The translations under genes were made by a program, and so were the position numbers. From the sequence record MK629529.1: 5,494 nucleotides of DNA; one strand, 5' to 3'. The notes under the pieces were generated by a model. It had not been told where the DNA came from. It saw nothing but the letters and a program-made list of their open reading frames with translations, and searched no databases. The DNA is from Escherichia phage Lilleto. Below, piece after piece: positions 2,475 through 5,494 of this stretch; positions within the stretch are counted from its first letter, which is position 1; the number at the start of each line of letters is the position of its first letter.

Positions 2475-3761
2475 ATGTCTAATGTTCAAACTTCTGCCTC
2501 TCGTGATGCAATTGATTTATCACATCTGGTCTTCAACACTGGCGCTATTGGTCGCCTTAAAGTCGCATCATGGACCCCTGTTATCGCTGGTGATTCTTTC
2601 CAGCTTGACGCTGTTGGTGCTTTACGCTTATCCCCTCTGCGTCGCGGCTTGGCTATTGACTCAACTGTTGATTACTTCACTTTCTACATTCCACACCGTC
2701 ATATCTATGGCGATGCATGGATTCAATTTATGAAAACTGGTGTCGCTGCCACTTCTCTTAACCCTGTAACTACTGGCGAATACGTTGATAGCGCCTCTTA
2801 TCTTGGTGTAATCCCTTCTGCTGATGGCAAGGTTCCCAAGTTCCTGCACCAAGGCTATCTCAATATTTACAATAACTACTTCAAAGCCCCTTGGATGGCT
2901 GACCGTACTGAGGCAAACCCCTCCAACTTAAACGACGACGACCGTCGTCACGGCTTCCGCTGCTGCCATCTAAAAAACATCTGGTCCGCACCTCTTCCTC
3001 CTCAAACGGAAATCACTCGCGCTATGACTACTGGCGCTACTTCTATTGATATTATGGGTCTGCAAGCTGCTTACGCCCAACTTCACACTGATCAAGAACG
3101 TGACTACTTTATGCAGCGTTACCGTGACGTAATCTCTTCGTTCGGTGGCAAAACTCACTATGACGCTGATAATCGTCCTCTTCTGCTTATGCGCTCTAAC
3201 TTCTGGGCTTCTGGCTATGATATCGACGGCACTGACCAAACTTCATTAGGTCAATTCTCTGGCCGCGTCCAGCAAACATTCCGTCACTCTGTTCCTCGCT
3301 TCTTCGTACCGGAACACGGCGTTATTATGACTCTTCAGCTCGTACGCTTCCCGCCTACCTGCACTGAGGAAACTCACTATCTCGTCGGCAAAGGCGCACT
3401 AAACTATACTGACCTTGCGGGTGATCCAACTCTTTACGGTAACTTACCGCCTCGCGAAATCGAAATGAAAACTCTCTTCCGTGGCGCTGCTGGCTCTACT
3501 GAAAAAATCAAAATTGCCGAAGGGCAATGGTATCGCTATCATCCTTCTTACGTTGATGGACAATATCACAACCTTCAAGGCTTCCCGTTCATCCAAAATG
3601 GTCCAACTGGCAACATGGAAAACCGTGTACTGATTGACCATAAAAAATACGACGAATGCTTCCAATCACTCCAATTAACTCACTGGAATGCCCAGGCTAA
3701 ATACAATGTCACTGTATATCGACATATCCCGACCACACGTGATAGCATCATGACTTCTTAA
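2475..3761 (+). CDS. F: Major capsid protein F
   Basis: 428-aa ORF with high similarity throughout to phiX174 F (e.g. GALRLSPLRRGLAIDSTVD, HTDQERDYFMQRYRDVISSFGGKT, TTRDSIMTS terminus). AAGGA at 2464-2468 upstream of ATG 2475. Stop TAA 3759-3761. Confidence 0.97.
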   Translation: MSNVQTSASRDAIDLSHLVFNTGAIGRLKVASWTPVIAGDSFQLDAVGALRLSPLRRGLAIDSTVDYFTFYIPHRHIYGDAWIQFMKTGVAATSLNPVTTGEYVDSASYLGVIPSADGKVPKFLHQGYLNIYNNYFKAPWMADRTEANPSNLNDDDRRHGFRCCHLKNIWSAPLPPQTEITRAMTTGATSIDIMGLQAAYAQLHTDQERDYFMQRYRDVISSFGGKTHYDADNRPLLLMRSNFWASGYDIDGTDQTSLGQFSGRVQQTFRHSVPRFFVPEHGVIMTLQLVRFPPTCTEETHYLVGKGALNYTDLAGDPTLYGNLPPREIEMKTLFRGAAGSTEKIKIAEGQWYRYHPSYVDGQYHNLQGFPFIQNGPTGNMENRVLIDHKKYDECFQSLQLTHWNAQAKYNVTVYRHIPTTRDSIMTS

Positions 3762-3772
3762 AGCCTATAACG

Positions 3773-3812
3773 TGACAGGGGGCGAAAAATTTTAATTTTT
3801 CGCCCCCTGTCA
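3773..3812 (+). other. F-G intergenic hairpin with 17-bp perfect stem; candidate complementary-strand origin element or terminator
   Basis: TGACAGGGGGCGAAAAA (3773-3789) pairs perfectly with TTTTTCGCCCCCTGTCA (3796-3812) around loop TTTTAA. The F-G intergenic region is where G4-type phages carry the primase-dependent complementary-strand origin and where phiX174 carries a terminator. Confidence 0.5.
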
Positions 3813-3862
3813 GGTTGAACAAGCGCAAGCGCGTTAGCTACCTAACTATAAGGACTACTCAA

Positions 3863-4387
3863 ATGTTCCAGAACTTTGTCACTAAACACAATTCTCCTCA
3901 ATTTACTACTACTATCACAAAGGCTGTCACTCCCGCCGCGTTGGCTCCTATTATTAATACGCCAACCGTTGCGCGTGACAATCTATTTGTGAATCTAACT
4001 ATTACCGCCCTGACTTCTCCGGGCGGTATCTCTGCTGTTGTCGCTATCGACAACTCCTCTCATACCGACAATCAGGTCGTTTCTGTTGCTGCCTCACTTT
4101 CTACTATCGGCAGCCTCGTACCTGTTCTTTGTCGGTTTGAATCTGCTACTGTCCCAACGGCTATCCCCGCCTCTGCGGTTACTTACTATCCGTTGGAATT
4201 TAAATCATCTGATACTACTCTGTCCGTTAAGGACTGCGTTACTGTCTCTACTCTTTCTCGCTCTGGCAATCCTGTTTATGTAGGTATTGCCCTTATTGCG
4301 AAATCATTTGTCGCCGGTACTGTGTACGGCTCCATCTCAATTAATCAGGTTGACCAAGAAATCACAACTCTGCAACCTCTCAAATAA
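3863..4387 (+). CDS. G: Major spike protein G
   Basis: 174 aa from ATG 3863 (MFQNFVTKHNS...), preceded by AAGGA at 3850-3854. Ends ...QVDQEITTLQPLK, like phiX174 G (...QVIKEIICLQPLK). The track ORF begins at a TTG (3815) inside the intergenic hairpin region; that extension is rejected. Confidence 0.93.
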   Translation: MFQNFVTKHNSPQFTTTITKAVTPAALAPIINTPTVARDNLFVNLTITALTSPGGISAVVAIDNSSHTDNQVVSVAASLSTIGSLVPVLCRFESATVPTAIPASAVTYYPLEFKSSDTTLSVKDCVTVSTLSRSGNPVYVGIALIAKSFVAGTVYGSISINQVDQEITTLQPLK

Positions 4388-4396
4388 GGAATCTCT

Positions 4397-5434
4397 ATGT
4401 TTGGTGCAATCGCTGGCGGCATCGCCTCTACTCTTGCTGGCGGTCTAATGTCCAAACTGATGGGCGGCAATAAACAAGCCGCCCCTTTAACTCCCGGACA
4501 AGGCCTCTTTGCTACTCCTGAAACTACTATCTCTGCTGACAATGCAGGTATTCAATCTGTTATGCAGGGACCTAACCCGCCTAGCCCTGATAAGGCGGCT
4601 CCTACATTTACCGAATCTGCCGTCTCCTCACTTAAGGATGCTGGCAAAGGACTCCTCGATGGTACTCTACAAGCTGGCGGCTCTGCTGTTCAACAAGCTC
4701 TTCTTAACAAAATTGGCCTCGGTGGCAAATCTGCTGCTGATAAAGGCAAGGATACTAAAGATTACCTTGCTTCTGCGTTCCCAGAGCTCAACCCGTGGGA
4801 ACGCGCTGGCGCTGGTGCTTCCTCTGCTGGTATGGTTGACGCTGGTTTTGAAAACCAAAAACAACTAACCAAGATGCAACTTGACAACCAAGTCAAAATC
4901 GCTAAGATGCAAAACGAAACTCAAAAGGATATCGCTGGCATCCAGTCTGTCACATCACGCATGAATACTAAGGATTCTGTCTATGCTCAAAATGAAATGC
5001 TCTCTTACAACCAAAAAGAATCTATGTCACGCGTTGGCGCTATTCTCGAAAACACAAGCCTCACCAAACAACAACAAGTTTCTGAAATTATGCGCCAAAT
5101 GCTTACTCAGGCTCAAACCTCAGGACAGCACTTTACTAACGCTCAAATCCAAGAACTTACTCGAAAAGTCGGTGCTGATATTGATGCTGTTCGTGCTAAC
5201 ACTGAACGCACCCATGTAGAAACTGACCGCTCTAAACAGGAAGTCCAAAACTCACGTTATGCTTCATCACAGGTCGGTAAAACCGCCAAGGACGTATCAA
5301 ATGTCATTAGTGACGCATCTTCTGGTATTGTTGATTATTTTCGCGGCGTTGATAAAGCTGTGGCTGACACTTGGAACAATTATTGGAAAGATGGTAAAGC
5401 CGACGGAGTAGGCTCAAATATGTCTCGCAAATAG
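4397..5434 (+). CDS. H: Minor spike / DNA pilot protein H
   Basis: 345-aa ORF: [20 protein letters not shown]-terminus, glycine-rich region, and the KDGKADG.GSN.SRK C-terminus of phiX174 H. AAGGA at 4386-4390 upstream of ATG 4397. Stop TAG 5432-5434. Confidence 0.95.
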
Positions 5435-5465: not shown

Positions 5466-5494
5466 AGCCTCCATTAACACGGAGGCTCTTTCGA
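5466..5494 (+). terminator. H-A intergenic hairpin (candidate post-H terminator; overlaps the gene A Shine-Dalgarno)
   Basis: AGCCTCC (5466-5472) pairs with GGAGGCT (5481-5487) around the 8-nt loop ATTAACAC, followed by CTTTCGA. The right arm contains GGAGG, 9 nt before the gene A ATG if the sequence is circular. Confidence 0.45.

Follow-up and report, generated by a model that had tools for sequence, protein, structure and literature searches.

A two-hairpin element between genes F and G of Escherichia phage Lilleto is a homologue of the phiX174 T_F/ori(-) element and a likely PriA-type origin of the complementary strand

Escherichia phage Lilleto (sequence record MK629529.1) carries a long perfect hairpin between gene F and gene G. 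We analyzed this hairpin computationally within the whole stretch of 5494 nucleotides (nt), called the window below, which is a complete genome of a Bullavirinae (phiX174/G4-type) microvirus with every gene on the + strand. The window is 96–98% identical to the E. coli K-12 wastewater phages Lilledu, lillemer, Lilleput and MG1, 93% identical to SECphi17 and ∼80% identical to the G4-like phages ID2, ID18 and G4. We consider it likely that the hairpin is this phage's version of the phiX174-type F–G element, that is, a PriA-type origin of complementary-strand synthesis (ori(-)) formed by a two-hairpin structure in the packaged (+) strand. This conclusion is carried by the structure itself, by its homology to the element of phiX174, by the strong compensatory covariation, by the lack of a G4-type origin, and by the finding that the element recurs at plasmid origins and in a further single-stranded DNA (ssDNA) replicon.

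Positions 3773–3812, which read TGACAGGGGGCGAAAAATTTTAATTTTTCGCCCCCTGTCA, form 17 perfect base pairs (bp) around the loop TTTTAA, as the first-pass annotation of the window had described, or 18 bp around a 4-nt loop (3791–3794). The 18-bp form is the minimum-free-energy (MFE) fold and the longest perfect stem found in an exhaustive scan of the 5494-nt genome, where the runners-up have 9, 8 and 7 bp. A repeat search lengthened the arms to 23 nt (3769–3791 and 3794–3816, 96% complementarity), the extension being an AAC/GTT closing helix beyond a single G.G mismatch (3772/3813). The GC-rich stretch GCGCAAGCGC, reported earlier at 3823–3832, is indeed present there and belongs to a second, shorter hairpin. 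The parts of the element, all on the + strand, are as follows.

3769–3816, + strand: hairpin 1, homologue of the phiX174 T_F/PriA-binding hairpin (by structure, covariation and covariance model); AAC/GTT closing helix 3769–3771 with 3814–3816, G.G mismatch 3772/3813, stem 3773–3790 with 3795–3812, loop TTTA 3791–3794
3818–3835, + strand: hairpin 2, one base past hairpin 1, matching the short hairpin at phiX174 nt 2353–2373; lower stem AAC/GTT 3818–3820 with 3833–3835, bulge AA, upper stem GCG/CGC 3823–3825 with 3830–3832, loop CAAG
3813–3837, + strand: nearly invariant motif GGTTGAACAAGCGCAAGCGCGTTAG, defined by invariant alignment columns and conserved from phiX174 to Erwiniaceae plasmids
3833–3846, + strand: possible third small hairpin GTTAG-CTAC-CTAAC, seen in the MFE fold, in competition with the lower stem of hairpin 2

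Folding as ssDNA gave −24.1 kcal/mol for the 48 nt of hairpin 1 (dinucleotide shuffles: z = −12.95) and −28.7 kcal/mol for the spacer, taken as 103 nt, compared to −9.9 ± 2.3 kcal/mol for its shuffles (z = −8.2; none of the 200 shuffles was as good). Hairpin 1 is thus far beyond chance. The possible third hairpin is not conserved in phiX174, as read from the alignment.

A search with the spacer in a mode suited to distant relatives matched genomes of the phiX174 clade over the hairpin and did not return G4, and blastn of a phiX174-clade spacer (from NC5) against the window gave an expect value (E) of 2e-8 at 3785–3837. We also built a covariance model, R1, solely from phiX174-clade, ID18-group and PJNS002 sequences, leaving out the clade of the window. 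R1 matched the window at 3766–3841 on the + strand with 67.1 bits (E ∼9e-14), and gave no match in the G4, ID11-like, WA-like or alpha3-like loci. The same layout could be aligned in the group of the window, in ID2/ID204, in ID18, in Salmonella phage PJNS002 and in the phiX174 clade: an invariant AACG, a stem middle that is clade-specific and entirely different in sequence, the apex AAATTTTAATTT, which does not vary, and a 3' flank that is nearly invariant, GGTTGA(A/C)CAAGCG(C)AAGCGCG(T/G)TAG. All six variants that were folded had the identical architecture. The motif GGTTGAACAAGCGCAAGCGCGTTAG is the likely sequence-specific determinant of the element. A search of the window against the whole Rfam library at E ≤ 1 gave no match, and among open papers we found none that treats the origin type in ID2, ID18 or phages of the Lilledu type, or in which the invariant motif appears.

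In phiX174, the hairpin of the terminator T_F (5' stem at nt 2308–2326) overlaps ori(-) and is a PriA binding site, and a shorter hairpin just downstream (2353–2373) is sensitive to mutation on both arms, according to a saturation-mutagenesis preprint of 2026 (bioRxiv 10.64898/2026.07.25.740675). When mapped onto our alignment, the phiX174 coordinates of that preprint fall on hairpin 1 and hairpin 2 of the window. The phiX174 primosome assembly site (PAS) is a fork-like hairpin at which PriA, PriB, PriC and DnaT load DnaB onto DNA coated with SSB (the protein that binds single-stranded DNA) (PMC5778457; PMC8246471), and it has been placed ahead of gene G (PMC9865509, citing Shlomai & Kornberg 1980). 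Judged by these comparisons, the window hairpin is a homologue of the phiX174 T_F/ori(-) element.

The different stem middles are related by compensatory changes. Among 11 phages, compensatory double changes were found at 8 of the 21 pairs of hairpin 1, and 98% of the cells in the alignment were paired, compared to 33–51% in shifted-register controls in which the 3' partners were moved. Hairpin 2 was paired in 100% of cells in the same phages and showed one compensatory pair, A-T to C-G, at 3819/3834. This pattern indicates that a hairpin of ∼44 nt is maintained by selection.

The element also occurs outside microviruses. A search of plasmids with the spacer returned an 81%-identical match (E 6e-9) in pEPIR37 of Erwinia piriflorinigrans (L033, 3999–4071) and a second one in Winslowiella, and a follow-up search brought the number to 21 plasmids of Erwinia, Pantoea and Winslowiella (loci including L034–L040). 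The phage-only model R1 scored 32–52 bits on these plasmid elements. They lie in unannotated DNA ∼280–400 nt upstream of a Rep3-family initiator gene (repE or 'RepB family'), in every case on the same strand. In pEPIR37, a perfect DnaA box, TTATCCACA, lies 17 nt from the element, and beyond it come an AT-rich tract, iterons with the sequence TGTGACAA and repE; we take this arrangement to be a mini-F ori2-like origin. The nearest upstream gene (parA or a peptidase gene) is divergent in most of these plasmids; the element there lies at no gene's 3' end and so cannot be the terminator of that gene. When representative genomes were scanned for the invariant motif, 20 loci were obtained, 17 of which were confirmed by the model (16 of the 17 in Enterobacterales), and most of the confirmed loci were again upstream of a Rep3 initiator. 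Two copies lie just after an F-type traC in conjugative regions (L057 1164–1237, Yersinia similis; L042 3632–3705, Acerihabitans arboris) and may be single-strand initiation signals for the transferred DNA. Finally, contig_77 of Pectobacterium brasiliense (L051, 5888 nt) carries two inverted copies, at 5080–5150 (−) and 5678–5748 (+), which scored 70 and 54 bits and flank a hicB antitoxin gene. This contig is inovirus-like, encoding G2P replication, G5P ssDNA-binding, TrbL-like and TIR proteins, and since it encodes the filamentous-phage proteins G2P and G5P it represents another ssDNA replicon.

Several observations weigh against a PriA-type origin, or against the breadth of the evidence for it. 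In the wider sets, covariation was strong, with compensatory changes at 14 of 19 (with plasmids) and 15 of 19 (genome contigs) hairpin-1 pairs and 95–98% of cells paired, but the two alignments behind these counts (A5 and A6) had been fitted to the model, so that the counts are somewhat inflated, and in A6, the genome-derived set, hairpin 2 is invariant by construction, as the scan pattern required hairpin 2. R1 found no match in the repE/sopA region of the E. coli F plasmid (L041) even with filters off (best E 0.43), and complete E. coli genomes and plasmids, when searched, gave no match. The plasmid parallels come from Enterobacterales other than E. coli, and their function there is putative. 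The dependence on PriA would follow from homology to phiX174, for Lilleto and likewise for ID2, ID18 and the Lilledu-type phages. In addition, the stem of the window is, as ssDNA, 5–11 kcal/mol more stable than those of five other phage variants, and 8 kcal/mol more stable than those of the nearest relatives; such a perfect stem may be suboptimal for PriA, or part of it may reflect a sequencing or assembly error.

This last point concerns one dinucleotide.

3783–3784, + strand: CG dinucleotide private to this genome, which fills a 2-nt CG bulge of the 3' arm and makes the stem perfect

The CG is lacking in all eight sampled genomes of this stem type (Lilledu, lillemer, Lilleput, SECphi17, MG1, ID2, ID204 and the metagenome contig L031), each of which carries the 2-nt CG bulge in the 3' arm, while a T.G occupies this junction in phiX174 and ID18. 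It is the sole difference from Lilledu in the 101-nt spacer, compared to 124 substitutions elsewhere in the genome, and with it the folding energy of the hairpin as ssDNA falls from −16.1 to −24.1 kcal/mol. Scans of viral contigs and metagenomes returned only ID2-like, ID18-like and Lilledu-like genomes, none with the CG insertion. Both its absence from the eight genomes and its being the only spacer difference would fit an error of assembly or polishing, in which case the hairpin would be real and only its perfection an artefact, the true sequence having the bulge of its relatives. We regard this as unlikely. The insertion is most simply explained by a template-switch 'correction' of a quasipalindrome, because the CG brings the 5' arm into exact complementarity with the 3' arm, which is the classic signature of this mutation, a real biological process (PMC7202029). 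Moreover, the other three insertions or deletions relative to Lilledu also lie in non-coding DNA, and a perfect stem is compatible with the family, as naturally perfect 20-bp stems exist in plasmid members such as pEPIR37.

A separate anomaly at the same place was seen in Lilleen (MK629526, L005), whose deposited genome is without ∼150 nt corresponding to window positions ∼3746–3902, i.e. the F stop, the whole F–G spacer with the hairpin, and the start of G, so that its F and G annotations overlap. Probably, either the assembly collapsed at the palindrome or the genome is defective.

Could the hairpin serve transcription only, as an intrinsic terminator or a 3'-end stabilizer of F transcripts with no role in replication? 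The homologous phiX174 hairpin is annotated as the terminator T_F, the hairpin is very stable as RNA (−35.6 kcal/mol), and several family members tolerate G.U-type pairs, which RNA accommodates well. The first-pass annotation had stated that phiX174 holds a terminator here; this is correct as far as it goes, but the same phiX174 hairpin is also the PriA-bound ori(-). As a terminator, T_F is weak and blocks just 20–40% of transcription (bioRxiv 10.1101/2020.03.05.979765). In the window, the earlier observation that no clear U-run follows the stem holds, as the tail reads GGTTGAAC, and a consensus terminator scan did not call hairpin 1, though it flagged 2439–2456. A TTTT after hairpin 2 occurs only in the phiX174 clade, and neither hairpin is followed by a U-tract in the window, ID2, ID18 or PJNS002. 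Thus, what is conserved across the family appears to be a structure relevant to ssDNA together with its non-U-rich flank, and not a terminator tail. Nor do the plasmids fit, where the element lies between divergent parA and repE, near a DnaA box and iterons, with no gene 3' end at the site. Finally, the genome contains no other candidate ori(-): there is no match to the G4 origin, and all other perfect stems have at most 9 bp. Because all the replicons that carry the element share a need for priming on ssDNA, primosome assembly is favored over a purely transcriptional role, which we find decidedly improbable. In the mRNA, the hairpin would nevertheless lie, very stable and lacking a U-tract, at the 3' end of F transcripts, and by analogy with T_F its probable role is that of a leaky terminator or 3'-end stabilizer between F and G.

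The first-pass annotation had favored an origin at least as much as a terminator and had proposed the G4 type, in which DnaG primase binds the SSB-coated stem-loops directly and makes a primer from an exposed CTG without PriA, DnaB or DnaC. The general idea of a complementary-strand origin in ssDNA is supported, whereas its G4-type version fails. It could be expected from the grouping of the genome with G4-like phages (∼80% identity to G4, ID2 and ID18) and from the F–G location, which is that of the G4 origin. However, the 136-nt G4 origin (L001, 3841–3976) showed no similarity to the circularized window with blastn or blastn-short (best E ∼1, chance 7–13-mers only), so that the alignment suggested in that annotation as a check yielded part of what it had named as speaking against itself. 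As positive controls, the same query matched ID11-like and WA2/3-like genomes with 94–99% identity and the G–H spacers of alpha3-like phages with E values of 1e-21 to 1e-23. In the G4 spacer, three stem-loops precede a CTACTG that we take to be the classical primase start, while the window spacer has one long and one or two short hairpins that are unrelated to G4 stem-loops III, II and I. The sole CTG in 3762–3862, at 3807, is not exposed but base-paired inside the 3' arm of the stem. As model R1 also cleanly separates the two classes, a G4-type origin is largely refuted by these comparisons, and we give it very little credence.

The types of ori(-) are distributed as a mosaic among the Bullavirinae. 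G4, ID11-like and WA2/3-like phages (L001, L022, L024) carry the G4 type between F and G, and alpha3-like phages (L013, L016, L018, L019, L025) carry it between G and H and have an F–G spacer of only 30 nt, whereas ID2, ID18, PJNS002 and the group of the window have the phiX174-type hairpin despite their 'G4-like' genomes.

It is as implausible as a G4-type origin that the 40-bp near-perfect palindrome acts in the duplex replicative form, be it as an operator for a protein, a cruciform or a hotspot of recombination. Although a palindrome of this kind exists in double-stranded DNA and its minus-strand mirror gives weak matches to R1 (25 bits vs 67), covariation preserves the pairing of the stem and not its sequence, G.T pairs on the + strand would be A.C on the opposite strand, the conserved flank is asymmetric (3' side only) and the orientation to the rep genes is fixed.

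If the hairpin is a PriA-type ori(-), its action can be pictured as follows. On infection, the + strand would be coated by SSB while hairpin 1 (3769–3816) and hairpin 2 (3818–3835) stay folded, and the two hairpins, one base apart, would mimic an abandoned fork. PriA would recognize this fork-like structure and be followed by PriB and DnaT, DnaB/DnaC and DnaG, and the resulting mobile primosome would prime synthesis of the (−) strand, converting the ssDNA into the replicative form.

The host machinery that most likely starts the replication of this phage is therefore the PriA restart primosome, as in phiX174, and not primase alone, as in G4; dependence on PriA, PriB and DnaT is the predicted consequence. 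An element of this kind is well known. What the analysis adds is the dichotomy of origin types in G4-like microviruses, which show two origin flavors at one locus, the private hyper-stable allele, and the close, unannotated relatives of the phiX174 priming hairpin at plasmid origins of plant-associated Enterobacterales and in a filamentous-phage-like element. The covariation-backed structure with its short invariant motif could guide work on PriA–DNA recognition and the annotation of single-strand origins. A broader reading, which we advance tentatively and would not yet bet on, is that the phiX174 n' site, instead of being a hairpin peculiar to one phage, is one member of a conserved, sequence-defined family of ssDNA priming elements, AAC-N-[16-20 bp free-sequence stem, A/T loop]-N-GTT-G-A(A/C)CAAGC..GCGCG(T/G)TAG. 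If true, Bullavirinae phages, the inovirus-like element, iteron plasmids of the Rep3 type and certain conjugative regions across Enterobacterales would share this family; the actual recognition code read by PriA or a partner protein would lie in the invariant 3' motif and the junction; and G4-lineage microviruses would have swapped PriA-type and DnaG-type ori(-) cassettes at the same F–G slot. The perfectly corrected stem of Lilleto would then be a natural hyper-stable allele for probing how imperfection of the stem tunes PriA loading.

The genes around the element are in agreement with its intergenic position. The length of 101 nt given earlier for the F–G spacer (3762–3862) is correct, as the TAA of F ends at 3761 and the ATG of G is at 3863. 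H was confirmed by Pfam alongside F and G.

2475–3761, + strand: gene F, major capsid protein (Pfam Phage_F, E 3e-151; annotated F in relatives; stop TAA 3759–3761)
3850–3854, + strand: Shine-Dalgarno sequence AAGGA for gene G, by direct reading, 8 nt upstream of the ATG at 3863
3863–4387, + strand: gene G, major spike protein (ATG 3863; Pfam Phage_G, residues 1–174 on profile positions 1–175)

The open reading frame of G can be extended upstream to a TTG at 3815, which falls within the GTT of the closing helix of hairpin 1. We agree with the earlier view that this extension is non-coding: in ID2 it is interrupted by an in-frame stop, in ID204 and PJNS002 its frame is shifted, and the Phage_G profile begins at residue 1 of the ATG-initiated protein. 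To judge from these relatives, the TTG start is a mechanical extension of the reading frame. A promoter scan found no G promoter in the conserved flank, where TTGAAC resembles a −35 element but has no −10 element at a workable spacing.

The divergence between the window and Lilledu is uneven, with no substitutions in the F–G spacer and 0.4% in G, compared to 2.3–3.0% in A, F and H and 5–7% in the J–F and H–A spacers. The low divergence across 3762–4387 suggests recent recombination or strong constraint around G. The start of H is annotated inconsistently in relatives. In the window, the longest reading frame begins at 4397, 9 nt past G as in G4, which would make the G–H spacer merely 9 nt; the annotation of Lilledu (L002, 4439) puts the start ∼50 nt later, and in the long form the match to Pfam starts at residue 18.

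Hairpins are also found elsewhere in the genome. Other perfect stems of 7–9 bp lie inside coding regions at 4462–4484, 4003–4028 and 4775–4804, an example being GGGCGGC-AATAAACAA-GCCGCCC early in H. The J–F spacer contains a 7-bp GC-rich hairpin, GTGGGACCACGGTCCCAC (2439–2456, within 2437–2460), with a T-rich tail, which is the only intergenic terminator-like site called on the + strand and is probably the analogue of T_J; two of the four insertions or deletions relative to Lilledu (ATG at 2437 and CTCT at 2456) flank it. In the H–A spacer, the hairpin AGCCTCC-ATTAACAC-GGAGGCT (5466–5487) holds a GGAGG in its 3' arm, just upstream of the start of gene A at position 1, which mirrors the overlap of the T_H terminator with the gene A ribosome-binding site in phiX174 (10.64898/2026.07.25.740675).

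Four known systems can be compared with the F–G element of Lilleto. With a canonical Rho-independent terminator it shares a GC-rich hairpin right after a highly expressed gene, but it has no U-run, and its conservation reaches into the non-U 3' flank and into contexts where no terminator is expected. Like the origins of the G4/alpha3/St-1 type, of which that of G4 also lies in the F–G spacer, it would start the complementary strand on SSB-coated viral ssDNA via stable hairpins, but its sequence is unrelated, it has two hairpins and it exposes no CTG. The needs for host factors differ as well, as the G4 type requires DnaG alone and the phiX174 type requires the PriA primosome. The phiX174-type PAS or single-strand initiation (ssi) signals of plasmids (ColE1/pBR322, mini-F ori2) are hairpins beside origins that load the PriA primosome (in part PMC8246471). 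The homologues of the window element in Erwiniaceae plasmids likewise lie beside Rep3 origins, near a DnaA box and iterons, whereas no similarity to the classical E. coli plasmid sites was detectable in the F-plasmid region or in E. coli genomes. The closest parallel is the F–G hairpin of phiX174. The window differs from it in its G4-like genome background, in a stem middle made wholly different in sequence by compensatory changes, and in a stem that is perfect (−24.1 vs −13.1 kcal/mol as ssDNA) where that of phiX174 is broken by a T.G mismatch and an internal loop; without a TTTT after hairpin 2, termination should be even weaker than in phiX174. The two elements share their genomic position, their strand and the two-hairpin order of AAC-N-stem-A/T loop-stem-N-GTT, G and hairpin 2, and their apical AAATTTTAATTT is identical and their 3' motif nearly so.

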